From an uncultured Methanosarcinales archaeon (GTDB lineage Archaea > Nanobdellota > Nanobdellia > Woesearchaeales > GW2011-AR4): 64,000 nt of DNA. Under the pieces are notes generated by a model. The model did not search any database. It was not told where the DNA came from and saw only the letters and a list, made by a program, of their open reading frames with translations. Positions 44,589 to 64,000 of the stretch are shown here, in pieces (position 1 is the first letter of the stretch; the number at the start of each line of letters is the position of its first letter). The stretch lies in the NCBI GenBank assembly GCA_964438385.1, contig CAYTKI010000011.1, positions 48,739-112,738 of the forward strand, read 5' to 3'. Position numbers and translations under genes: made by a program.

Positions 44589-45005
44589 GTGAATAGCTAC
44601 ACCTATGGGGAGATTGAAGTTGGGCAATCTGCGTCATTTGAAAAAACAATCACAAAAGAGGACATTCTTTTATTCTCAAAATTGACAGGGGACAAAAATC
44701 CGCTTCATGTGGATGAAGAGTACGCAAAGCAGACAAAATTCAAGAAACCAGTTGCATTCGGGCTCCTCATCAGTTCCCTGTGGTCTACAATTGCCGGAAT
44801 GCATCTTCCAGGGAAGCATTCGCTGATACTTTCTGTGCAGTCTAGTTTCAGAAAGCCCTGCTTCGTAGGGGATACCCTGACAGTAGAGGGTGTGGTGAGG
44901 CAGAAAGTGGATGTTGGAAGCATCCTCGTCCTGGGCCTCTCAGTGAAAAACCAGACTCGCGCGATTGTTGCTGATGGGGAGATGAAAGTGCAGGTGCTAA
45001 AGTGA
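44589..45005 (+). CDS. MaoC-like (R)-specific enoyl-thioester hydratase/dehydratase (hot-dog fold)
   Basis: 138 aa. LTGDKNPLHVDEEYA...FGLL is the MaoC hot-dog signature. Confidence 0.75.
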   Translation: MNSYTYGEIEVGQSASFEKTITKEDILLFSKLTGDKNPLHVDEEYAKQTKFKKPVAFGLLISSLWSTIAGMHLPGKHSLILSVQSSFRKPCFVGDTLTVEGVVRQKVDVGSILVLGLSVKNQTRAIVADGEMKVQVLK

Positions 45006-45709
45006 AGCAGGCAGTCATCCTTGGGATAAGCGGGGATCTTGGAAAAGCGATAGCGCGGATGCTGTTGAAAAAGGGGTATCGTATTCTGGGGACCTCCCAC
45101 ACCCATCAAGCGGAGGAGTTTGCAGGTAATGGGAATGTCGAGGTCGTTTCCCTCGACCTTTCCGACGCAAACCAGGTGGAAAAATTTTGCAGCCAGATTG
45201 GGAAGCTGGAGGGCATTGATTTCATGGTGAATACCATAGGAAGCTACACCATGGGCCGCTTTGAGCAGATCCCATTTGAGACATTCCAAAAAGATTTCAA
45301 CCTCAACGTGCTGCTTTATATTCAGGTGCTTCAGAAGGCATTTCCAAAATTCAGAAAAGATGCAAATCTCATCTTCATATTGACGGAGATGGTAGTTGGT
45401 GACCCGAGCTATTTTCTCACGCCTTACGTATCATCAAAGTACGCCCTCCTTGGGCTTATGAGGGCGCTCGCAGGAGAGCTGAAGCAGCGTGGCATTCGAG
45501 TAAATGGAGTCTCTCCGGGGATGATGGATACAAGATTCATAGCTTCAGTTCCGCGCATCGTAAAGGAGCAATACCTGAGAAATTCCCCCTTGGGTAAGTT
45601 TGTGGATCCAAAAGAAGTTGCCAATGTTATTGAGAATATCGTGGATGATCCTTCCATGAACGGAGAAAATATTCCTCTCTTGGGAAAGAAAATGCCGCAG
45701 GGAAAATGA
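45002..45709 (+). CDS. Short-chain dehydrogenase/reductase (SDR)
   Basis: AVILGISGDLGKAIA (TGxxxGxG-like), YVSSKYAL (YxxxK). 4-nt overlap with the MaoC gene. Confidence 0.75.
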   Translation: MKQAVILGISGDLGKAIARMLLKKGYRILGTSHTHQAEEFAGNGNVEVVSLDLSDANQVEKFCSQIGKLEGIDFMVNTIGSYTMGRFEQIPFETFQKDFNLNVLLYIQVLQKAFPKFRKDANLIFILTEMVVGDPSYFLTPYVSSKYALLGLMRALAGELKQRGIRVNGVSPGMMDTRFIASVPRIVKEQYLRNSPLGKFVDPKEVANVIENIVDDPSMNGENIPLLGKKMPQGK

Positions 45710-46041
45710 GGATTGGAATAGATATCGAGGAAGTGAAGCGTTTTGTGCTCAGTAGAAATCACCCTTTTATCAGGCATGCATTCACAAAAAAAGAAATGAG
45801 GTATGCGTTTTCAAGGAAAAATCCTGCAATGCACCTGTGCGGGTTCTTCTGCGCAAAGGAGGCGCTCATAAAGGCCCTCTGCCCTGCTTCGCTTCTTCTC
45901 AGGGAGATAGAGATTACGCACGGAAGGAATGATGAACCAAAGATGAGCATTCTCAAGAAAAGTTTAAAAATTCGGAAGGGGATTGATGTAAGCATCTCCC
46001 ACACGGAAAAATACGCAGTGGCAGTTGTGATGGGGAAGTGA
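45706..46041 (+). CDS. acpS: Holo-ACP synthase (4'-phosphopantetheinyl transferase, AcpS type)
   Basis: 111 aa. MRIGIDIEEVKRF...FTKKEMRY...FCAKEALIKAL...VSISHTEKYAVAVV. Classic AcpS blocks. Confidence 0.75.
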   Translation: MRIGIDIEEVKRFVLSRNHPFIRHAFTKKEMRYAFSRKNPAMHLCGFFCAKEALIKALCPASLLLREIEITHGRNDEPKMSILKKSLKIRKGIDVSISHTEKYAVAVVMGK

Positions 46042-46054
46042 GTGGGGAAGTCTC

Positions 46055-47758
46055 ATGAAAAAGATTAAGGTCGCGATTCTTTGCTCATACACCATCAACA
46101 ACCTTGTTCCTCCGCTAAAGGACGTTCTCTTGGAAAAGGGGTTTGATCCGGAGATCAGGTTTGGCGGGTATAACCAGTTTATCCAGGAACTGATGGATAA
46201 GTCCTCCTGGCTCGCAGATTTTAAGCCGGAAATCATTGTCGTTGCCCTCAGCGCAAGAACCTATCTTCAGGATCTTGAATATTATCTGTTGGATCTTTCA
46301 GAAACCGAGATAAATGGTCTCATTGATGAAAAATCCTCTTTTCTTCTCAGCGCAATTCAGGCATACCGGGAGCCGGCAAAGATTATCCTCACCACTTTAG
46401 ACTACCCCAATTACTCTCCGCTCGGCATAATGGACCTCATTTCTGACGTTGGGATGAAACATGGTATCGACCGATTCAATTATGCGCTCGTGTCATTCGC
46501 AAGGAAAAATCGCCAAGTTATCCTCATTGATTTTGATAAAGTGCTCTCTGGCATGGGAAAGGTGGAAGCGACCGACGAGAAGATGTATTATCTGGGAAAG
46601 CTTCTCCTACGCAATAATGCGGCAGCCGCCTTTGCTTGGGAGATTGCCGGCTGCATAGCGGCAACCTTTGGCCAGAGGAAGAAATGTATCGTTGTGGATC
46701 TTGATAATACCTTATGGGGAGGGGTGATTGGGGAGGATGGGGCAAATGGGATTGTGATTGGCGATGATGGGGTGGGCAGCGTCTATCGCGACATCCAAAG
46801 AATCCTTTTGAATTGGAAAAAATCCGGCGTGCTCCTTGCCATCGCCTCCAAGAATAACCCTGACGACGCCATCTCCGCGTTCAGGGAGAATGGGGCAATG
46901 GTGCTTAAGGAAGAGGATTTTGTGGCGACAAGGATCTGCTGGGAGAGCAAGTCAAAGGGGATCGCCTCCATCTCAGAGGAGCTCAATATCGGACTTGAGA
47001 GCTTTGTCTTTCTCGATGACAACCCTGCCGAGCGGCTGGAGGTGAGGACGCACCTTCCGATGGTTGAGGTCATTGATGTCCCGCAGGATATTGCCCTTCT
47101 TCCGGAAATGCTCAAGGGGCTCCGGCTCTTTTGGGCGCTCGCGCTCACAGAGGAGGATAAGCAGCGCCATGGGCTGTATATGCAGGAAAAAAGCAGGGCG
47201 GTGCTGAAGGAGAAAGTGTCTGTTGATGATTATCTTAGGGAGCTTGGCACATCAATAGTGGTGAAGAAAAATGATCTCTCCTCGCTTGAGCGGATAACGC
47301 AGCTCATCAACAAGACCAACCAATTCAATCTGCGCACCCAGCGCTACTCTCAGGAGCAGGTAAAAGCGCTTATGGAGTCAAAAAACAGCATGGTACTCTC
47401 GCTCCATGCTGCGGACAAATTCGGAGATCTTGGTCTCACCGGAATTATCATCATCAATAGGCAGAAAGAGAATGAATATTTTCTGGAAGGCCTTCTCATG
47501 AGCTGCAGGATTCTGGGGAGAAATATTGAGCGCCAGTTCTTCATCGAAGCGATAAAAGTGCTGAAAGGGGTGGACCCCTTGGCCATCCTGCATGCGGAAT
47601 ACGTCCCGACACAAAAGAACGGCATGATAAAGGATTTTTGCGCTCAGATGGGTTTTAAGATGATGGGGGAAGGGGATGGCAAACTATCATATTCCCTATC
47701 GCTTGGACAGTATCAGATTCACGATGTGCAGTCAATTGAGGTGAAACACTATGGATAA
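46055..47758 (+). CDS. FkbH-like HAD-superfamily (subfamily IIIC) enzyme; predicted (glyceryl-)acyl loader onto a carrier protein
   Basis: 567 aa. Central HAD core CIVVDLDNTLWGGVIGEDG...ASKNN...FLDDNP with a C-terminal FkbH-like region. Immediately upstream of an ACP gene, overlapping it by 8 nt. Confidence 0.65.
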   Translation: MKKIKVAILCSYTINNLVPPLKDVLLEKGFDPEIRFGGYNQFIQELMDKSSWLADFKPEIIVVALSARTYLQDLEYYLLDLSETEINGLIDEKSSFLLSAIQAYREPAKIILTTLDYPNYSPLGIMDLISDVGMKHGIDRFNYALVSFARKNRQVILIDFDKVLSGMGKVEATDEKMYYLGKLLLRNNAAAAFAWEIAGCIAATFGQRKKCIVVDLDNTLWGGVIGEDGANGIVIGDDGVGSVYRDIQRILLNWKKSGVLLAIASKNNPDDAISAFRENGAMVLKEEDFVATRICWESKSKGIASISEELNIGLESFVFLDDNPAERLEVRTHLPMVEVIDVPQDIALLPEMLKGLRLFWALALTEEDKQRHGLYMQEKSRAVLKEKVSVDDYLRELGTSIVVKKNDLSSLERITQLINKTNQFNLRTQRYSQEQVKALMESKNSMVLSLHAADKFGDLGLTGIIIINRQKENEYFLEGLLMSCRILGRNIERQFFIEAIKVLKGVDPLAILHAEYVPTQKNGMIKDFCAQMGFKMMGEGDGKLSYSLSLGQYQIHDVQSIEVKHYG

Positions 47759-56602: not shown

Positions 56603-56770
56603 GAAGTTGCCTGTTACTCATAATTTATTTTTAAGTCTATTGCATATAACGGTCCATAGAGAAAACGCGAAATGTTTTTAAACGAGGCGGCGTTCTTTGG
56701 GAAGGGTGAATGCGTGGATTCCATCGACAAATTCAAGGATTCAGAAGGGAGAATTAGCAGGGAAAATATC

Positions 56771-57211
56771 ATGAAGATTATCCCATACAACGAGCATTTC
56801 CTTTTCATAGATGAAGTGGTCTCTTTGGATAAGAAGAGGATTGTCGCAAGAAAGAAAATTACGGGAAAAGAAGATTTCCTCAAAGGTCATTTTGTGGATT
56901 TTCCAATTACCCCGGGGGCATTGATTGTCGAAGGGCTTGGCCAGGCAGCGACTCTACTCGCACGCTACAGTATTCCAAATCACCAGAAAAAAGATGTGCT
57001 CGCATACAAGATCCGCGATGCGAAATTCATGGCTCCGGTGCTTCCGGGCAGTGAGATGACCTATGAGGTGGTCTCGCAGGGGCAGATGGAGAAATTTGCC
57101 ATGATGCAGGGCAAGGTATTTGTGGATGGGAATCTCACTGCGGAAGCGTTCATGATGCTTGCGATAGTCGATCGTGATGCGTTTAGGGGTAAGCACTCCT
57201 CCGCGAAATAA
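56771..57211 (+). CDS. fabZ: 3-hydroxyacyl-thioester dehydratase (FabZ-like hot-dog fold)
   Basis: IIPYNEHFLFIDEVVSLD...GHFVDFPITPGALIVEGLGQAA matches the FabZ IPHRyPFLLiD...GHFPg.PvmPGvL..EamaQ block. Confidence 0.75.
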   Translation: MKIIPYNEHFLFIDEVVSLDKKRIVARKKITGKEDFLKGHFVDFPITPGALIVEGLGQAATLLARYSIPNHQKKDVLAYKIRDAKFMAPVLPGSEMTYEVVSQGQMEKFAMMQGKVFVDGNLTAEAFMMLAIVDRDAFRGKHSSAK

Positions 57212-57225
57212 AAGATTGTTCTTCC

Positions 57226-58350
57226 ATGATGCATGTAAAAGGAATTGGAATGACGAAATTTGGAATCCATAGTAAGACAACCCATGAGCTGTGCTATGAG
57301 GCGGCAATGGAGGCATTCGATGATGCAAATATAACTCCGGACCAGATAGATGCCGTTGTCATCTCCCGTAGTGATAGCGCAATTGATGGGGAGCGGCAGC
57401 GCCTCTTTCCCTCTCTTATCAGCAGCATCCTGCAGAAAGAGGGAATCCCCATGGTGCATGTGATTGCCGCGTGCGCGGGAGGCGGAGCTGCATTGTGGAA
57501 TGCAGTGCACTTGGATTATGGGAATGTACTTGTGCTTGGGGTTGAGAAGCTCACACCTCCTCCGACGCCGCAGGTGACTGAAGACCTCATGACTGCATCT
57601 GAGCACCTCTACGAGCAGTCAGAAGGGATGAATTTTCCAGCCCAGAATGCACTGATAGCGCAGCAGTACATGCGCAGGTATGGGGTTTCCACTGATGATC
57701 TTGCATTGGTTGCCCTAAAAAACCATGAAAATGCAAACCTTAACCCAAAAGCAAGATTTTACGGAAAAACTGTGACGCTCGCCATGATCAAAAAATCACC
57801 CATCATCTGCTCCCCCTTGCGCCTCTTTGACTGCAGTATCTCCGTGGATGGCGCGGCTGCCGTAATAGTCACCAAGGAAAAAACAGATATTGAAATCGCT
57901 GGATCTGCATTGTACGCTGATCGCCTTCCTGCCTTTGAAGCGCCGGATATGACCTCATGGGAAGGGACAAAACTTGCTGCGGAGCAGGCATATAGGGAAG
58001 CAGGAATCACTCCAAAGGATCTTGATTGTGTGGAATTGCACGACGCGTTTACTTCTGTTGAATTGATGGCGTATGAGGATCTTGGCTTGTGTGGAAAAGG
58101 CGAGGGGAAAAAACTCATCCGCAAAGGACATACAAAGCTCAATGGAGCGCTTCCAGTCAACATGTCTGGAGGCCTCAAGGCAAAAGGGCATCCCATTTCC
58201 GCGACAGGTATATCGCAAATTTATGAGATCGTAAAGCAGTTGCGCAATCAGGCAGGAAAACGCCAGGTGGATGGAGCGAAAATCGGAATCGCGCATAATG
58301 TGGGCGGCGTTGGCAGTTCAGTGACTGTCCATGTGCTCAAAAAAGTATAG
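57226..58350 (+). CDS. Archaeal-type thiolase (acetyl-CoA C-acyltransferase, SCP-x/thiolase fold)
   Basis: GIGMTKFG, active-site VIAACAGGG, C-terminal HNVGG. The family that partners DUF35 proteins. Confidence 0.8.
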   Translation: MMHVKGIGMTKFGIHSKTTHELCYEAAMEAFDDANITPDQIDAVVISRSDSAIDGERQRLFPSLISSILQKEGIPMVHVIAACAGGGAALWNAVHLDYGNVLVLGVEKLTPPPTPQVTEDLMTASEHLYEQSEGMNFPAQNALIAQQYMRRYGVSTDDLALVALKNHENANLNPKARFYGKTVTLAMIKKSPIICSPLRLFDCSISVDGAAAVIVTKEKTDIEIAGSALYADRLPAFEAPDMTSWEGTKLAAEQAYREAGITPKDLDCVELHDAFTSVELMAYEDLGLCGKGEGKKLIRKGHTKLNGALPVNMSGGLKAKGHPISATGISQIYEIVKQLRNQAGKRQVDGAKIGIAHNVGGVGSSVTVHVLKKV

Positions 58351-58363
58351 AAAATGAATGTAG

Positions 58364-59830
58364 GTGAATGACATGATTATCAGATGGATATGCGAGATAT
58401 GCAGTAAGAAATGGATATATCCCGTGCAGAAATGCCTCTATTGCAAAGGACCAATAGTAAAGCAGAAGGGCACAAAGGTGAAAATCATTGGCATCACCAA
58501 AGTGAATATCCCCTCACCAATGCACCCAATCATTCCCTATAATATTATCCTTCTCGAGGATGAGTTTGGCAACCGCATGCCTAAAAAAACAATGAAAGAA
58601 TACCACATTGGGGATGCCTACCAGCTCGAGCAGGCAAAGACAGATGGCGCAGTTATCATTTGCAAGGTAAAGTATGATATTGAGGAAGCATTGCAAGAAT
58701 CCCTTGGCCTTTTGAGATCAGTTGATTTGGCGCCGGATGATAAGGTGCTCATTAAGGTAAGTTGCATTGAGTCAGTATATCCATACCAGGCGGTAACGAC
58801 AAACCCCGTGCTTCTTGAATCCATCATCCATATTCTGAGGGGGAGGGGCATCTCTAATATTATTATTGGGGAGCAGGCAATGCTCGGTAATGACACCATG
58901 GACGCAGCTTCAAAGGCAGGAATCCTTGAAGTCTGCAAGAAGGCGGATATTGCATTCGTTGATTTAGGCAAGGCAGAGTATGTGGAGAAGAAGCATGGCA
59001 CAACAACCTTTAGCATTGCGAAAGATGCAGTGGAGAGAAAAATCATTGATGTGCCCGTCCTAAAGACCCATTCCCAACTTGGCGTTGCAGGGGCCATGGA
59101 GAATTTGCTTCGTGTATGCTCCGCAGAAACGCAGAAGAATATGTATGCTGAAGGCATTGAGAAATCACTTGCAAAACTTGCGCTGGTCGCAAGGCCCATA
59201 CTCATCATCGGAGATGCGACAAATGGGCTTCAGGGCAATGGCCCTACTTCCCTTGGCGAGCCGGCGTTTCTGAATATGCTGCTTGTGGGAAAAGACATTG
59301 TTTCAGTTGACCGAATATTTTCTGAGCTGGGGATGTTTTCCTTGCCGGAACATGTCAGGGAAGCCGGGATTCTTGGGGCTGGTGAATCTGATCTCAAGAA
59401 AATTGAAGTGGTAAATTGTGAAGTGAATGCGGCAAAGTACTCCCTCAAGAAACCGGAAAAAGTGGTAACAGCTCATCCCAACATCCGGCTGGTTGATGGC
59501 CAGGCAGATCCTTATGTGCTCAATACTGCACTCAGGATGGCGCAGAAGCTGGTTGGAATTGCCGGGGAAGAAGTGCATATCGTGGTGGGCTCCCATCTTT
59601 CATCGGAGATGGTTGAGGGCAAGCAGCGCTTGGTGCTATACGGCCGTGACGCCATCAGGAAGGGAAAGGAGATAGGTATCCAGGCGGTCGCTGAGCTTAC
59701 TGAAGAGATGCCGGATATCCAAAAAGTCGTGTTCTTGAAAAGCATACTTGAGAATCCAGACAAGAAGAAACTTGGTATCGCGGACGTCTTCAAGGCAAAG
59801 CTTGCGATGTTCTCGCAGAAAAAGAAATGA
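58364..59830 (+). CDS. Fusion protein: N-terminal DUF35 (Zn-ribbon + OB-fold) and C-terminal DUF362-like domain
   Basis: N-terminus CEICSKKWIYPVQKCLYCKG...KVKIIGITKV is the DUF35 rubredoxin-like ribbon plus OB fold. From ~aa 120, DDKVLIKVSCIESVYPYQAVTTNPVLLESIIHILRGRG fits the DUF362 kVlIKPN...tThP.vv.avv motif. 488 aa in total. Confidence 0.55.
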   Translation: MNDMIIRWICEICSKKWIYPVQKCLYCKGPIVKQKGTKVKIIGITKVNIPSPMHPIIPYNIILLEDEFGNRMPKKTMKEYHIGDAYQLEQAKTDGAVIICKVKYDIEEALQESLGLLRSVDLAPDDKVLIKVSCIESVYPYQAVTTNPVLLESIIHILRGRGISNIIIGEQAMLGNDTMDAASKAGILEVCKKADIAFVDLGKAEYVEKKHGTTTFSIAKDAVERKIIDVPVLKTHSQLGVAGAMENLLRVCSAETQKNMYAEGIEKSLAKLALVARPILIIGDATNGLQGNGPTSLGEPAFLNMLLVGKDIVSVDRIFSELGMFSLPEHVREAGILGAGESDLKKIEVVNCEVNAAKYSLKKPEKVVTAHPNIRLVDGQADPYVLNTALRMAQKLVGIAGEEVHIVVGSHLSSEMVEGKQRLVLYGRDAIRKGKEIGIQAVAELTEEMPDIQKVVFLKSILENPDKKKLGIADVFKAKLAMFSQKKK

Positions 59831-59867: not shown

Positions 59868-60602
59868 ATGCTGACTGGAAAAATTGCATTGGTCACCGGC
59901 TCCTCACGGGGCATTGGAAAGGCAATTGCCCTTGAGCTTGCAAAGAAAGGGGCAGATGTCGCAATTAATTATAGCAGTGATGAGAATGGCGCGCGGGCAG
60001 TTGCCGAGGAAATTGAAAAGATTGGGAGAAAGGCGATTGTGGTCAAGGCGAATGTTTCCAACACAGAGCAGACAAAAAAGATGGTGCAGGAAATATGTGA
60101 GAAACTTGGAAAAATCGACTTGCTGGTCAATAATGCGGGAATCGCACGCGATAAGACCTTAAAGAACATGAGTGTAGAGAAATGGAACTTAGTGATTGAC
60201 ACCAACCTCACTGGCACCTTCAATGTCACCAAGAGCGTGCTTGAAGTTATGCCTGAGGGCGGGAGCATTGTCAACATTTCTTCTGTAGTGGGGCTCAACG
60301 GCAATTTCGGGCAGACAAACTATTCTGCATCCAAGGCAGGCATAATCGGATTCACCAAATCATTGGCAAAAGAGGTGGCGAAGAGAAGGATAAGGGTGAA
60401 CGCAGTCGCTCCTGGATTTATCGAGACAGAGATGACAAAAGGCATCCCGTTCATCAGGAAGCTCATCGTGAAGAGATTCATTCCGCTTGGGCGGTTGGGA
60501 GCAGCAGAGGATGTTGCGCACTTAGTGGCATTTTTACTTTCTGAGGATGCAGGATACATCAGCGGCCAAGTCGTGAGAATAGATGGGGGGTTGATGTTCT
60601 GA
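59868..60602 (+). CDS. fabG: 3-oxoacyl-thioester reductase (FabG-type SDR)
   Basis: KIALVTGSSRGIGKAIA...NNAG...SSVVG...YSASKAG...APGFIETEM. Classical FabG motifs. Confidence 0.85.
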   Translation: MLTGKIALVTGSSRGIGKAIALELAKKGADVAINYSSDENGARAVAEEIEKIGRKAIVVKANVSNTEQTKKMVQEICEKLGKIDLLVNNAGIARDKTLKNMSVEKWNLVIDTNLTGTFNVTKSVLEVMPEGGSIVNISSVVGLNGNFGQTNYSASKAGIIGFTKSLAKEVAKRRIRVNAVAPGFIETEMTKGIPFIRKLIVKRFIPLGRLGAAEDVAHLVAFLLSEDAGYISGQVVRIDGGLMF

Positions 60603-61735
60603 TGTTTGTTAGGGGAGTTGGCATGACCTCATTTGATTTTGATCAAACACCCTCATTTGAGAGAATTTCACAGTGCGTGTCTGAAGCGCTTGAGGATGCG
60701 GAACTTGGGCTTGAGCAGCTTGATGCAGTTTTCATATCAAACACAGAGACAGGAGGGAATAGCGAGCGCCAGCGCCACATGTCTCCTCTCGTAAGCAGTC
60801 TGTTTGAGAGGAGGATCCCAATAATCAATCTCCCATGGGGATGTGGTGGTGGTGGGGTTGCTTTATGGGATGCGCTGCGGTTCTTGATGGCCACGCCAAA
60901 GGAAAATGTTCTCGTTATCGGCTGCGATAAAGTGGTGGGAAACACTTCAGAGCGGCTCACAGATGAGATCCTAATGGGCGGTGAGAGAAAATATGAGCAG
61001 ATTGAGGGAGTTGTCTTTCCCGCCCAGAACGCGCTTGTGGCGCAGCAGTACATGCTCAAGTTCAATGCTGTGGAGGGGGATTTTGCGCTTGTTGCCCTGA
61101 AAAATCACGAGAATGGGTTTCTCAATCCGAAAGCAAGATTTTACAATAAAAAAGTAACTCTTGAGATGATTGAGAAGTCCCAGGTTGTTGCCTCTCCTCT
61201 TCGCCTCTTTGACTGCAGTATCTCGTGTAATGGGGCTGCTGCTGTAGTGGTAAGTAGGGAAAAAAGTGATATAGAGATTGTGGGGAGTAGCGTCGCAACA
61301 AGCAATCTCTCAACATTTGAGAGAAAAAATATGCTCTCTTGGGAATCAACAAAGATTGCCGCGAAGAACGCGTACTCACAGGCAGGGATTAGCCATGAGG
61401 AAGTGGATATTGCGGAGCTTCATGATGCTTTTACTCCTGTTGAAATCATTTCGTATGAGGATCTTGGATTTTGCGGGCCTGGAGAAGGCATTCAGCTTAT
61501 CAGGGAAGGCGCGACAAAGCTGAACGGAAAACTGCCGGTAAACACTTCAGGCGGGCTCAAGGCGCGTGGGCATCCTATTAGTCCGACCGGCATCGCGCAG
61601 ATATATGAGATTGCATGCCAGATGAGAGGAGATGCCGGCAAGAGGCAGATTGAGAAGCCAACCTATGGGCTGGCCCAGAATATTGGAGGGGCGGGAAGCA
61701 TGGCTGCCGTGCACATCCTGAAAAACAATGGCTAA
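60602..61735 (+). CDS. Thiolase-fold protein, paralog of 57226..58350
   Basis: GVGMTSFD, WGCGGGG (Cys retained), QNIGGAG. ~40-45% identical to the upstream thiolase by eye. Confidence 0.7.
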   Translation: MFVRGVGMTSFDFDQTPSFERISQCVSEALEDAELGLEQLDAVFISNTETGGNSERQRHMSPLVSSLFERRIPIINLPWGCGGGGVALWDALRFLMATPKENVLVIGCDKVVGNTSERLTDEILMGGERKYEQIEGVVFPAQNALVAQQYMLKFNAVEGDFALVALKNHENGFLNPKARFYNKKVTLEMIEKSQVVASPLRLFDCSISCNGAAAVVVSREKSDIEIVGSSVATSNLSTFERKNMLSWESTKIAAKNAYSQAGISHEEVDIAELHDAFTPVEIISYEDLGFCGPGEGIQLIREGATKLNGKLPVNTSGGLKARGHPISPTGIAQIYEIACQMRGDAGKRQIEKPTYGLAQNIGGAGSMAAVHILKNNG

Positions 61736-62804
61736 AGGAATGCTTTCCGGGATACGGGTACTTGACTGTTCTTCTCTTATTCCGGGGCCGTTTTGCGCGA
61801 TGATGCTTGCTGATCTTGGTGCGGATGTCACCAAGGTGGAGAGTCCAAAGGGTGATGGTTTACGCTCCTTTGGGACAATCAATGGGGTGAGTCCTTATTT
61901 TGTGGTCATAAACAGGGGCAAGAAAATCGTGGTGCTCAACCTCAAGACAAAGGAAGGAAAAGGCAAGCTTCATCAGCTCGTTAAGGGAACAGATGTCATA
62001 ATTATCGGGACAAGACCGATGAAAGCAGCAGATCTTGGCCTTGCATACTCACAAATAAGGAAAATGAACAAGAGGATTGTGTATTGCTCAATCACTGGCT
62101 ATGGGATGCGTGGAAGAAAGAGCAAATTGGCAGGACATGACATAAATTATCTCGCCCATAGCGGAATGCTCCCTGCGCTTTCAGGAAATTCAGTTTCAGT
62201 ACCAGGGGTGCAGCATGCGGATCTTGCCGCAGGAACGCTTGCGTGTTCTGTGATACTCGCGGCGCTTTTCTCCAGGCAAAAAACAGGGAAAGGTGTATGT
62301 CTGGACCTTAGTATGGCGGATGCCACTTCCTATTTTTTTGGGATGTATCTTTCGCATGACTCTCTTGCCGGAATGGATAGATTTCTTGCAGGAGCATGCC
62401 CATGCTACAATGTGTACAAGACCAAGGATCATAAGTGGGTTGCTCTCGGTGCCGTAGAGGAAAAATTTTGGAAAGCGTGGTGCGGTGCGTCAAAAATGAT
62501 TTCATTGGAAAAGAAGCAATGGTCGATGGAGAAAGATGTAATTGAGAAAGTGCGTGATGTGTTCATGAACAAGACTGCAAAAGAGTGGGTGATGCTCGGT
62601 AATCTTCATGATTTTTGCTGCGAAGAAGTTCTGGATGCAAAAAGCGCCGTCTCCTTGGGCATGGAGCAAAAAAAATGGGAGGAGGTGCAAAGAATACCTG
62701 TTCCTAGTCTGGGATTTGGTGTTTTTGGGATTCCTGTTTCACAACCATCATGGAAAAAAAAGCCAACTTTCCTCAACTCAGGAATAGAGCGGGAGGGTAA
62801 GTGA
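61728..62804 (+). CDS. Family III CoA-transferase (CaiB/BaiF / alpha-methylacyl-CoA racemase family)
   Basis: GIRVLDCSSLIPGPFCAMMLADLGADVTKVE is the hallmark N-terminal block of CoA-transferase family III. Confidence 0.85.
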   Translation: MAKGMLSGIRVLDCSSLIPGPFCAMMLADLGADVTKVESPKGDGLRSFGTINGVSPYFVVINRGKKIVVLNLKTKEGKGKLHQLVKGTDVIIIGTRPMKAADLGLAYSQIRKMNKRIVYCSITGYGMRGRKSKLAGHDINYLAHSGMLPALSGNSVSVPGVQHADLAAGTLACSVILAALFSRQKTGKGVCLDLSMADATSYFFGMYLSHDSLAGMDRFLAGACPCYNVYKTKDHKWVALGAVEEKFWKAWCGASKMISLEKKQWSMEKDVIEKVRDVFMNKTAKEWVMLGNLHDFCCEEVLDAKSAVSLGMEQKKWEEVQRIPVPSLGFGVFGIPVSQPSWKKKPTFLNSGIEREGK

Positions 62805-62809
62805 CATTA

Positions 62810-64000
62810 ATGGAAATCAAAAGACATTCCTGGAAACCGACAGCGCCAATCTCAAAAGGAGCGAGCGCGTACCATGATGCAGTCTGCAACGCCAAGTATT
62901 ATGTGACTATTCTTGATGAGCTCATGATGAACGCTGCTCAGAAGATCGTGGAAGGTCAGATCGTTGTTGATTTTGGCGCAGGAACAGGAGTTTCTGCTCT
63001 TCGGCTCTTAAAGCAGGCATCCGATCATTTTGATTTGTGGATGGTGGACAATTCTCCTGCGTGGCTCGGCAAGGCCTATGAGATTCTGCACGATCGCAAG
63101 GGCACTGATTTTTTTATCGTTGGGAAAAAAGGAGAGACTCATGCGACGCTCTCCCAGACCATTGGGGAAGGTATTGCGGACCACGTGGTCTGCGCAAATA
63201 CCATCCACCTCATTCCAGATATTGCAGAGGTATTCGAGGGGGTCTCATGCGCGCTTAAGGAGGGGGGGATGTTTTTTGTCGAGAGTGGAAATGTCCTCTA
63301 TGACGATACTCCAAAAGGAGCGCTTCTGGTCGATGACACCGTCAAGCGGGTACATGATATCGCCCTGGACATGGTGAGGTATAATCCTTCATTCTCATCC
63401 TATAAGGCGGATCTCGATGCGGATATCAGGAAGTATGCGGCTCAGAGAAAATTTGTCTTTCCTGATCCTCGGCCGTTAAGCTTCTATTGTGAAATGCTCC
63501 AAAAGTCCGGGTTTGTAGTTGAGCGCTCCTATGCAAAGCTTTTCAAGGTTGAATATGGGGATTGGCTTACATTTCTCCGCGTTAAGCGGCTGCAGGCAGG
63601 AATCCTTCCCGAAATCGGCGGCAATGATCCATCCAATAAGGAAGAGGAGGATCGTGACAATCTCATTTCATTGGCCACCCATAAGCTCTTTGACGAATTG
63701 CGCGCTGAGAATCCGCTTGCTGACAAGCAGGGGTTCACTATTGAGGTAGTGTATATCATCGCCCACAAAAAAGAGCGCACGCTTGCCGGAAAAAAAGCTC
63801 TGGTCACTGGCGCATCACGCGGCATTGGAAGGGCAATCGCACTTGAATTGGCTTCCGAAGGGGCAGAGATCATCATTAACTACAATAGCAGCAAAGAGAA
63901 GGCGCAGGAAGTTGTGGAGGAGATTGCTTCGATTGGCTCGCGCGGAATCGCGGTCAAAGCGGATGTAGCAATCCATTCTGATGTGACGCATCTTGCTGCG
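62810..64000 (+). CDS. Didomain protein: class I SAM methyltransferase-like domain fused to an SDR (FabG-like ketoreductase) domain; 3' end beyond window
   Basis: Hand translation from the ATG at 62810 is open through 64000 with no stop, checked codon by codon. VVDFGAGTGVSALRL (MTase motif I) is followed ~330 codons later, in the same frame, by KKALVTGASRGIGRAIALELASEGAEIIINYNSS (SDR TGxxxGxG). Missing from the ORF track because it runs off the edge. Confidence 0.65.
   Translation, partial: MEIKRHSWKPTAPISKGASAYHDAVCNAKYYVTILDELMMNAAQKIVEGQIVVDFGAGTGVSALRLLKQASDHFDLWMVDNSPAWLGKAYEILHDRKGTDFFIVGKKGETHATLSQTIGEGIADHVVCANTIHLIPDIAEVFEGVSCALKEGGMFFVESGNVLYDDTPKGALLVDDTVKRVHDIALDMVRYNPSFSSYKADLDADIRKYAAQRKFVFPDPRPLSFYCEMLQKSGFVVERSYAKLFKVEYGDWLTFLRVKRLQAGILPEIGGNDPSNKEEEDRDNLISLATHKLFDELRAENPLADKQGFTIEVVYIIAHKKERTLAGKKALVTGASRGIGRAIALELASEGAEIIINYNSSKEKAQEVVEEIASIGSRGIAVKADVAIHSDVTHLAA

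Follow-up and report, generated by a model that had tools for sequence, protein, structure and literature searches.

The window analysed here, a stretch of 64,000 nt from contig CAYTKI010000011.1 of an uncultured Methanosarcinales archaeon (GCA_964438385.1; Woesearchaeales according to GTDB), carries a cluster of genes on the plus strand. Its first gene (56672..57211) encodes a FabZ-type 3-hydroxyacyl dehydratase (Pfam FabA, 3.2e-21; NCBIfam FabZ, 5.6e-30) and is followed by the thiolase KT1 (57226..58350), the fusion gene studied here (58373..59830), a FabG-type 3-ketoacyl reductase of the SDR family (59868..60602; NCBIfam TIGR01830, 1.3e-92, above its cut-off) and the thiolase KT2 (60602..61735), a paralogue of KT1 with 53% identity (Pfam/NCBIfam, tblastn). 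These five genes form one tightly spaced block that is conserved across loci. The position of the fusion between a thiolase and a FabG, as described in an earlier note on this DNA, was borne out by the ORF list and the Pfam/NCBIfam matches. Further downstream we found a family III CoA-transferase (61728..62804; Pfam CoA_transf_3, 4.2e-79), a variable member that occurs in only part of the loci, and a methyltransferase-SDR fusion recognised by Pfam (62801..64000), which is cut by the end of the window.

KT1 belongs to the archaeal/SCP2 type of thiolases that pairs with DUF35 proteins (Pfam Thiolase_C_1, 9.3e-51) and is the proposed docking partner of the fusion protein. Among solved structures, its nearest relatives are the thiolases found in complexes with DUF35 (6esq, 7pxp_C, 6ok1_A, 9myr_A and 5m3k_C). 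The catalytic Cys and the HDxF and GHx motifs of thiolases are kept in KT1, and catalysis has been assigned to the His of HDxF in these enzymes (PMC12960953). In both KT1 and KT2 this motif reads HDAF, with Ala for the Cys of HDCF. The idea that this substitution marks a switch to decarboxylative condensation was dropped, as HDAF is also present in 7yvy, the closest solved acetyl-CoA acetyltransferase.

The mechanical ORF of the fusion gene, present in the ORF list as previously described, runs from a GTG at 58364 to 59830 on the plus strand and comprises 488 aa; residues are numbered from this GTG throughout. However, the true start is almost certainly the ATG at 58373, which gives a protein of 485 aa, because a Shine-Dalgarno-like AGGTGA lies 7 nt upstream of it, all homologues begin with MIIRW and P0001, its copy in the database, also has 485 residues. 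The motif that had been quoted for the DUF362 part, DDKVLIKVS...TTNPVLLESIIHILRG, was found at aa 125-161. A sequencing or assembly error that merged two genes, for which the region around 58700-58760 had been singled out, has a negligible probability. The reading frame is intact, without a stop codon or frame break in that region or elsewhere in the ORF. Full-length fusions with 48-72% identity are kept in more than 120 protein clusters, and the fused architecture recurs in 71 species-level loci from many independent studies. In addition, a single compact and confident AF2 model packs all domains together (pLDDT 88.8, pTM 0.88). An artefactual origin was thus ruled out.

The N-terminal module (58373..58678, plus strand; aa 4-105) consists of a CxxC...CxxC zinc ribbon (C10, C13, C24 and C27) and an OB-type barrel in a DUF35-like fold, and is the proposed thiolase-docking domain. 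According to DSSP on the AF2 model, it is joined by a linker (58679..58738; aa 106-125), made of a helix (106-116) and a loop, to the DUF362 or LarA-like core (58739..59458; about aa 126-365). Here the earlier note had described one DUF362-like domain of about 370 aa. DUF362 is indeed present: PF04015 matched aa 128-319 (nt 58745-59320) with E=1.7e-32 and a score of 113.5 bits (gathering threshold 24), and the match extended over positions 1-198 of the 200-position profile. However, the region really has three parts, the core being followed by a C-terminal flavodoxin-like alpha/beta domain (59471..59773; about aa 370-470), restricted to the 'long' forms of about 488 aa, and by a basic amphipathic C-terminal helix (59777..59827; aa 472-488, modelled as a helix at 472-487) in which D474 and K479 are conserved. 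Within the core, an invariant Gly-rich loop (59225-59269; aa 288-302) is modelled with low confidence.

The N-module had been described as a DUF35 domain, and this description was upheld by fold and gene context but not by Pfam profiles. Neither PF01796 (OB_ChsH2_C) nor PF12172 (zf-ChsH2) matched the N-terminal 122 aa even at E<=10, and the DUF35 profiles also failed to match ten further members of the fusion family; canonical DUF35 proteins of related genomes and contigs match them at 1e-14 to 1e-19. A profile of the N-module retrieved no canonical DUF35 protein from 1.84 billion representative proteins, and PDB sequence searches with this profile and with a full-length profile gave nothing relevant. 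When the N-module family was aligned with canonical DUF35 by hhalign, the probability was 3% (E 0.014) with a sensible register, and about 18 N-terminal residues of canonical DUF35 were missing from the module. The structural comparison gave a different result, since all 16 of the 16 top Foldseek matches of the AF2 N-module models were DUF35 chains with a probability of 1.00. Both elements of this fold, a rubredoxin-like zinc ribbon with four Cys and, after it, an OB fold, are found in the N-module, and structure-based alignments with the DUF35 chains 6esq_E/F gave 24-26% identity. Parts of the fusion family keep three of the Cys ligands of the zinc ribbon or none at all, and a subclade has lost these cysteines. 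Fold and gene context thus partly support the N-module as a highly diverged DUF35-type domain, which would imply that DUF35-type docking modules reach beyond Pfam detection. One homologue (P0021) is labelled by JGI as an 'uncharacterized OB-fold protein'.

Trf (6htj), the Sulfolobus 'translation recovery factor', is one of the two structures that best match the N-module, and nucleic acids are frequent ligands of OB folds. The module might therefore be a nucleic-acid-binding zinc-ribbon/OB domain that has nothing to do with thiolases. We consider this highly improbable: Trf is itself a member of the DUF35 family, the top matches other than Trf are all thiolase-bound DUF35 subunits, the thiolase neighbour is near-universal and every fusion partner of the N-module is an acyl-CoA enzyme. 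The N-module profile found only 119 clusters among the representative proteins; in 43 of them the module is joined to DUF362, in 23-24 to 3-hydroxyacyl-CoA dehydrogenase (HCDH) and in 1-2 to an SDR. In one genome (L051) the whole fusion protein is joined on into FabG. The DUF35-type module thus looks like a portable 'thiolase tag' used on at least three enzyme families.

When the surrounding genes were compared across loci, the fusion gene directly followed a thiolase gene in 75 of the 76 loci, with a median of 4 nt between the thiolase end and the fusion start; these loci take in CPR bacteria and the HCDH fusions of Cloacimonadota and Nitrospirota. The core ACC-FabZ-KT-fusion-(FabG)-KT was found in about 65 archaeal species genomes, and nearly all archaeal loci keep FabZ ahead of KT1. 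Most archaeal loci also have genes for acetyl-CoA carboxylase and biotin ligase next to the cluster, and it is often accompanied by GpsA and two PlsC-like acyltransferases, encoded downstream. In the archaeon studied here, the genes for acetyl-CoA carboxylase, GpsA and PlsC lie outside the 64-kb window. On related Woesearchaeal contigs the canonical trio of thiolase, HMG-CoA synthase and DUF35 is encoded separately, a few kb away, so the fusion represents an additional, specialised system.

The DUF362 core had also been called distantly LarA-like. This was supported by the fold, by the shared Pfam clan of DUF362 and LarA_N (CL0471) and by weak cross-matches, LarA itself giving a weak match to the DUF362 profile. 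The hallmark residues of LarA, on the other hand, appear to be absent. No Lar_N (PF09861) or LarA_C (PF21113) match was obtained for the window protein, and a short-form homologue gave only a sub-threshold match to Lar_N (E=0.08). A search for homologues of LarA returned only close relatives (77-99% identity), which added no depth to the LarA profile. Identity between the fusion and the LarA superfamily (PF09861/PF21113; PDB 5huq, 7s91 and 9eia) is 12-18%, and the extra N- and C-terminal domains also set the fusion apart from LarA. We mapped the functional residues of L. plantarum LarA (Lys184, cofactor tether; His200, Ni ligand; His108 and His174, catalytic) by means of three profile anchors (Pfam cross-matches and end-points) and a local HMM alignment, so the mapping is approximate and indicative only. 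In this mapping, K184 corresponds to the invariant E246 of the fusion, and H174 to position 236, which is His in the window protein and Asn or Asp in most homologues. H108 falls at about 173-174, where the residues are hydrophobic; no His was found at the H108 and H200 equivalents, nor a conserved His about 16 residues past E246. The sole invariant His C-terminal of the N-module is H371, which lies outside the LarA-like core, within the extra C-terminal domain. Moreover, the expectation that DUF362 proteins are often Fe-S-associated was not matched by any Fe-S motif in the fusion protein.

The DUF362 domain probably does not work like LarA, as it seems to lack the Lys that tethers the nickel pincer, the ligand of the nickel and the histidines used in catalysis. 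A LarA-type activity, for example racemisation or epimerisation of a hydroxyacyl-CoA beside the thiolase, would fit the common clan and the weak profile match. It is nevertheless quite improbable given the residue pattern and the missing Lar_N/LarA_C matches. FabG and FabZ both have (R)-stereochemistry, so no epimerase would be needed between them. About 20 polar and Gly residues of the core are conserved, most of them invariant, in the examined long and short archaeal forms at 40-72% overall identity. The same residues are degenerate in the CPR homologues, which keep the N-module and the overall domain, and FabK-type enoyl reductases are encoded at L069, the one long CPR locus examined. We read this contrast as a hint of catalysis by the archaeal domain. 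Our literature searches found no functional work on DUF362/COG2006/PF04015, and searches on Woesearchaeota thiolases and on DPANN FabG/FabZ found none on this protein or cluster.

DUF35 had been presented as normally stand-alone, which overstates the rarity of fusions: ChsH2, Shy and HMGS-DUF35 were already known. In the steroid side-chain aldolases ChsH2-DUF35/Ltp2 (PDB 6ok1) and Shy-DUF35/Sal (PDB 9myr), whose DUF35 chains rank among the structures that match the N-module best, the fused DUF35 docks an enzyme on a thiolase-fold partner encoded nearby. There, Pfam recognises the DUF35, which is fused C-terminally to a MaoC hydratase of bacterial steroid catabolism, whereas the module of the window fusion is N-terminal, invisible to Pfam and attached to DUF362 in an archaeal cluster of biosynthetic type. 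Similarly, Pseudomonas fluorescens has an HMGS-DUF35 fusion acting with ACAT (PMC12960953), which joins an (inactive) HMG-CoA synthase to a DUF35 that, unlike the N-module, is canonical. The archaeal acetoacetyl-CoA thiolase/HMG-CoA synthase/DUF35 complex (6esq/6et9) contains a thiolase of the same type (KT1 against 6esq_A, E=2.4e-56) together with a zinc-ribbon/OB protein, as the window pair does, but its DUF35 is a stand-alone protein of about 130 aa that bridges to HMG-CoA synthase in the mevalonate pathway. The fatty-acid synthase (FAS) complex of Sulfolobus acidocaldarius (10.1101/2024.07.05.601840) resembles the window cluster in its CoA-based thiolase condensing enzyme with a DUF35-type organiser and in the co-encoded SDR ketoacyl reductase and hot-dog dehydratase. 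In contrast to this system, the window cluster has a dehydratase of the FabZ and not the MaoC type, two paralogous thiolases and a DUF35-like part that bears a large DUF362; its relatives cluster acetyl-CoA carboxylase. As for the NADPH-dependent MDR-type enoyl-CoA reductase of the Sulfolobus type, none turned up among the scanned window genes or in the annotated flanks, and FabK occurred only at the CPR locus L069.

From these comparisons we infer that the fusion is probably a three-part subunit of a CoA-based, apparently ACP-independent, FAS-like system of Woesearchaeota, docked via its N-module. The module would dock the protein onto KT1, encoded just upstream, and possibly onto KT2 as well. 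Docking would keep the LarA-fold DUF362 domain, and in long forms the flavodoxin-like domain, beside the CoA site of the thiolase, where the DUF362 part may bind or act on the acyl-CoA intermediates handled by FabG and FabZ. The earlier proposal of a condensing-complex subunit holds up in its core and gains from the exclusively DUF35 fold matches of the N-module, the adjacency to thiolases, the HCDH and SDR sister fusions and the joining to FabG, while the missing Pfam DUF35 match speaks against it. As for the chemistry, it is a tentative suggestion that the DUF362 domain supplies the enoyl-CoA reductase step that is otherwise missing, or a different redox reaction. Just as tentatively, DUF362 could be a new acyl-CoA enzyme, notably a LarA-fold enoyl-CoA reductase without the nickel-pincer cofactor, which would be hard-wired to a thiolase and complete an ACP-independent FAS. 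The enoyl reductase was arrived at by elimination within flanks of about 20 kb, and the complementarity of DUF362 and FabK comes from the single long CPR locus.

Alternatively, the DUF362 domain and the C-terminal domain may be non-catalytic, serving as a scaffold or as a regulator that senses a ligand such as CoA, acyl-CoA or a nucleotide; they would then hold FabG and FabZ in place at the thiolase or modulate the activity of the thiolase, with the neighbours doing all the chemistry. DUF35 proteins are themselves non-catalytic organisers, the LarA hallmark residues appear unconserved, the CPR homologues show that the domain can persist without its motifs and the FabG fusion of L051 suggests physical association. 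Against this stand the conserved polar and Gly residues of the core, including a Gly-rich loop of the sort seen at ligand-binding or active sites, and the real enzymes (HCDH or SDR) that hold the position of DUF362 in sister proteins; a non-catalytic role is possible and, to us, doubtful. A degradative role of the fusion, as a subunit of a thiolase complex in beta-oxidation or in a fermentative, butyrate-type reverse beta-oxidation, is unlikely. Thiolases, HCDH fusions and the enoyl-CoA hydratase genes of some loci are classic beta-oxidation parts, and the CoA-transferase of the window would also fit. However, the reductase and dehydratase are of the FabG and FabZ types, acetyl-CoA carboxylase, biotin ligase, GpsA and the PlsC-like genes accompany the cluster, and the inspected flanks showed no genes for acyl-CoA dehydrogenase or ETF.

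A thiolase-docked subunit would give DUF362 (PF04015), the sister family of lactate racemase, its first concrete, testable biochemical setting, that is acyl-CoA chemistry at a thiolase. The island of acetyl-CoA carboxylase, FabZ, FabG, two thiolases, G3P dehydrogenase and PlsC-like genes is kept in ultra-small archaea of the DPANN group, with an echo in CPR bacteria, and it bears on the 'lipid divide' between archaea and bacteria and on fatty-acid lipid synthesis by supposed lipid scavengers. If the proposal is true, the synthase together with GpsA and the PlsC-like acyltransferases would enable DPANN archaea to make bacterial-type ester lipids. All components are small soluble proteins, which are suited to reconstitution.

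A scan of all six frames of the window for a DSL-type ACP motif found none. The window does encode a phosphopantetheinyl transferase of the AcpS type (45706..46041); a carrier protein may therefore be present, and independence from ACP is not proven. Instead of DUF362, the enoyl reductase could be the SDR that is linked to the methyltransferase; the full gene of this fusion is present in the loci L005 (567 aa) and L003.

The reading frame of the fusion (58364..59830, + strand) encodes 488 aa and opens with GTG. The real start is almost certainly not this codon but the ATG at 58373, because AGGTGA lies 7 nt upstream of it, all homologues begin with MIIRW and the identical database protein (P0001) has 485 aa; residue numbers used here count from the GTG. 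The coordinates, the quoted motif and the thiolase and FabG neighbours reported in the earlier note were confirmed by the ORF list, Pfam and NCBIfam. That note had also considered that two genes might have been joined by a sequencing artefact. No stop codon or frame break was found at the domain junction, and more than 120 clusters in a search of 5.8 billion proteins cover the fusion at full length (~480-490 aa, 48-72% identity), the named ones being 'DUF362 domain-containing protein' of Woesearchaeota/Nanoarchaeota. The artefact reading is therefore rejected. When one genome per GTDB species was scanned, 71 loci with a homologue were found, the closest to the window being that of Woesearchaeota UBA12027 (68% identity). 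About 65 of them are archaeal and labelled Woesearchaeota, Nanoarchaeota or Nanoarchaeia; the title 'uncultured Methanosarcinales' on some loci is taken to be a misleading record label and not the true taxonomy. These relatives place the origin of the window among the DPANN archaea. L066, a 4.3-kb contig labelled Nitrospinota bacterium on which a thiolase precedes a fragment sharing 70% identity with the archaeal fusion, is probably Woesearchaeal DNA that was mis-binned.

The AlphaFold2 model, for which a 37-sequence alignment was the input, was confident (pLDDT 88.8, pTM 0.88) and predicted four parts. These are an all-beta N-module (aa 4-105), a single linker helix, a two-lobed alpha/beta core (aa ~126-365) and a C-terminal region, consisting of a beta-alpha-beta, flavodoxin-like domain (aa ~370-470) and a basic helix (aa 472-487), which is missing from 'short' homologues of ~375 aa. 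The core contains the DUF362 match (PF04015, aa 128-319, E=1.7e-32, 113.5 bits against a Pfam cut-off of 24). DUF362 and LarA_N belong to the same Pfam clan, CL0471 (PMC11770544), with which the two-lobed core agrees, and the DUF362 profile also gives a weak match to LarA itself. In one clade (P0088-P0120) the flavodoxin-like domain carries C382-P-A-C385 and C429 close to the invariant H371; the loop positions of these cysteines recall the Fe-S site of hydrogenase small subunits and NuoB. In the window these positions are D382, V385 and D429 (nt 59507-59518 and 59648-59650), so any metal site in this domain would be clade-specific.

The N-module had been described as a DUF35 domain. Its fold supports this, whereas membership of the sequence family does not hold: aa 1-122 match no DUF35 model in Pfam even at E<=10, while canonical DUF35 proteins of related contigs match PF01796 at 1e-14 to 1e-19. 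Sequence searches of the PDB gave nothing matching the N-module, and its profile finds only 119 clusters (E<=1e-3) among 1.84 billion representative proteins, none of them a canonical DUF35. Profile-profile comparison with canonical DUF35 was weak (probability 3%, E 0.014), but in the alignment the two CxxC pairs line up, as does the central PY-hydrophobic strand. When the N-module was modelled separately (pLDDT 86), the top 16 Foldseek matches were all DUF35-family chains (ChsH2-DUF35, Trf, 6esq DUF35, BbsA, PhlB and MucC), each with probability 1.00 (E 1.6e-3 to 5e-2, TM about 0.36-0.49), and probabilities dropped off beyond them. From the modelled fold we conclude that the N-module is DUF35-like but highly diverged, and that it lies outside Pfam's DUF35. 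In the window protein the four zinc-ribbon cysteines are present (aa 10-27, nt 58391-58444). Sizeable subclades have only three (CEKD...CxxC) or none (SEDG...KDIYS), and in P0034, P0040, P0044, P0058, P0067 and P0079 all are replaced (SEDGKRKW...KDIYS) while the remaining module is nearly invariant, indicating that zinc binding is not what the N-module conserves. Conserved instead, even in the most distant relatives, are H54, P58-Y59, L63-L64-D66, N70, K75, G83, A96-V97 and K103-Y104-D105. On several contigs the fatty-acid cluster is followed, a few kb downstream, by a mevalonate-type trio of HMG-CoA synthase, thiolase and stand-alone DUF35 (L064 13311-15916; L062 14512-17396; L034 13406-15990; L029 16529-18990; L046 8773-11334; L052), so that those genomes encode a canonical DUF35 alongside the cryptic fused one.

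The N-module is joined to DUF362 in 43 of the 119 clusters, to a 3-hydroxyacyl-CoA dehydrogenase (3HCDH_N + 3HCDH, about 365 aa) in 23-24 and to an SDR in 1-2. Another 48 comprise short forms with the N-module alone, many probably fragments, and a few unclassified longer proteins; 4 are spurious repeat or too-short matches. Dehydrogenase fusions, which likewise come straight after a thiolase, are found in Cloacimonadota, Nitrospirota and other archaea (L072-L076). Patescibacteria (CPR) have a ~340-aa version of the window's protein (L068-L070). In one Woesearchaeal genome (L051, 9953-12184) the whole fusion is extended in frame by a complete FabG domain, giving 743 aa, a single example for which an assembly error is possible. 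The pattern suggests that the N-module may be a small docking tag that hangs various acyl-CoA enzymes on a thiolase. The same principle is seen in ChsH2-DUF35/Ltp2, Shy-DUF35/Sal and the fused HMGS-DUF35 of P. fluorescens.

A thiolase gene ends shortly before the N-module gene in 75 of 76 loci, a few of the 76 being duplicate views of the same contig. The gap has a median of ~4 nt and ranges from -4 to 62 nt, except in two CPR loci (763 and 1492 nt). Thiolase followed by DUF35 is the known arrangement of such gene pairs (10.1101/2024.07.05.601840). In addition, the nearest solved relatives of KT1, the thiolase upstream of the fusion, are exactly the DUF35-binding thiolase-fold subunits (6esq_A, BbsB 7pxp_C, Ltp2 6ok1_A, Sal 9myr_A and PhlC 5m3k_C), and KT1 retains the Cys, HDxF and GHx motifs, whose roles are taken from PMC12960953. 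The earlier proposal of a condensing-complex subunit was partly supported, and the evidence from context strengthens it considerably. We regard it as rather likely that the fusion docks to the thiolase and belongs to a CoA-based synthase-like system. The window has an intact KT1. Several independent groundwater MAGs have it broken over two or three frames, near residues 176-210 (L001/L017 7050-7993; L003/L021 6926-7995; L010, L023, L027, L029, L035, L044), which could be KT1/KT2 paralogue assembly chimerism, pseudogenisation or recoding.

In the window, one tightly packed + strand block runs from a FabZ-type dehydratase (56672..57211) through KT1 (57226..58350), the fusion (58373..59830), FabG (59868..60602), the second thiolase KT2 (60602..61735, 53% identical to KT1) and a family III CoA-transferase (61728..62804) to a methyltransferase-SDR fusion (62801..window end; continued in L005 6477-8180). 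The recurrent order in archaeal loci is acetyl-CoA carboxylase genes (carboxyltransferase, BCCP, biotin ligase, biotin carboxylase), FabZ, thiolase, fusion, (FabG) and second thiolase; CoA-transferase, enoyl-CoA hydratase, pyridine-nucleotide-disulfide oxidoreductase and methyltransferase plus SDR are variable. TRAM, ribosomal protein S2, a bacterial-type GpsA (G3P dehydrogenase) and two tandem PlsC-like acyltransferases are often also present, and a fatty-acid desaturase is found on a contig of the window's own genome (L005). No carboxylase, biotin ligase, BioY, GpsA, PlsC-like or desaturase genes lie within the 64-kb window, and no ACP gene was seen in the loci inspected. Overall the cluster looks like a CoA-based fatty-acid synthase that would feed G3P acylation, and its logic resembles that of the Sulfolobus KT/DUF35/reductase/dehydratase complex. 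In Woesearchaeal relatives the fusion gene is surrounded by what looks like a complete lipid island of bacterial type, with acetyl-CoA carboxylase subunits, biotin ligase, BioY, GpsA, two tandem PlsC-like acyltransferases and a fatty-acid desaturase (L003 793-6217 and 16223-17452; L005 9757-10932; most loci L006-L067).

The DUF362 core was compared with LarA, the lactate racemase with a nickel-pincer cofactor, whose sequence and L. plantarum numbering were confirmed against 5huq. Residues were mapped via three profile anchors: LarA aa 82-245 on DUF362 profile positions 18-171, aa 200-240 of a short-form homologue on Lar_N positions 133-173, and a local HMM alignment of the helix after 'TNP' with I. 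pallida LarA. In this approximate mapping, which is profile-based rather than a structural superposition, the cofactor tether Lys184 corresponds to the invariant Glu246, and the catalytic His174 to position 236 (His in the window, Asn/Asp in most homologues). The catalytic His108 falls at about aa 173-174, which are hydrophobic, and neither it nor the Ni ligand His200 has a conserved His as counterpart. Judged by these residues, the core probably does not work like LarA.

About 20 core residues are conserved, mostly invariantly, across the archaeal long and short forms examined, namely K131, T146, E170, Q171, K/R184, D200, K234, E246, N247, R250, D316 and the loop G288...G293-P294...G298-E-P300-x-F302. 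Such conservation speaks for an active site or ligand site. Carboxylation, condensation, ketoreduction and dehydration are all provided for by the archaeal core set, and enoyl reduction is the one elongation step with no obvious gene in the ~20-kb flanks, so that the DUF362 domain becomes a candidate for this step. In CPR homologues the core motifs are lost while the N-module is still conserved, and the one long CPR locus examined (L069) has FabK-type enoyl reductases, one fused to FabZ; no FabK turned up in any archaeal locus. This argument is thin, as it proceeds by elimination within ~20-kb flanks and from one informative CPR locus, and a catalytic redox role, for example as enoyl-CoA reductase, seems to us a tentative and rather unlikely assignment. 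The enoyl reductase could instead be the methyltransferase-linked SDR, and the main rival to a catalytic role is that the DUF362 part is a non-catalytic organiser or sensor.

No paper was found in the literature on the fusion protein, on DUF362 function or on the cluster in DPANN archaea. The fusion of a DUF35-type domain to a partner enzyme, docking it on a thiolase-fold protein, is already known. What appears to be new is that the module occurs in a cryptic, N-terminal version, that it is joined to a DUF362 domain of LarA fold, that it is alternatively fused to 3-hydroxyacyl-CoA dehydrogenase or SDR, and that its place in a fatty-acid cluster conserved in DPANN/CPR is fixed.

A second small acyl-handling cluster (44589..47758), within a glycosyltransferase-rich region of the window, encodes a MaoC-like dehydratase, an SDR, an AcpS-type 4'-phosphopantetheinyl transferase and an FkbH-like protein. 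The AcpS-type transferase implies that a carrier protein may exist elsewhere; no frame of the window gave an ACP-like DSL motif. The methyltransferase-SDR fusion is the last gene of the window's fatty-acid cluster, and the CPR locus L069 (12250-16061) contains a cyclopropane-fatty-acid-synthase-like methyltransferase beside its FabZ::FabK fusion and a second FabK. Together these genes hint that the fatty acids may be methyl-branched or modified in some other way.
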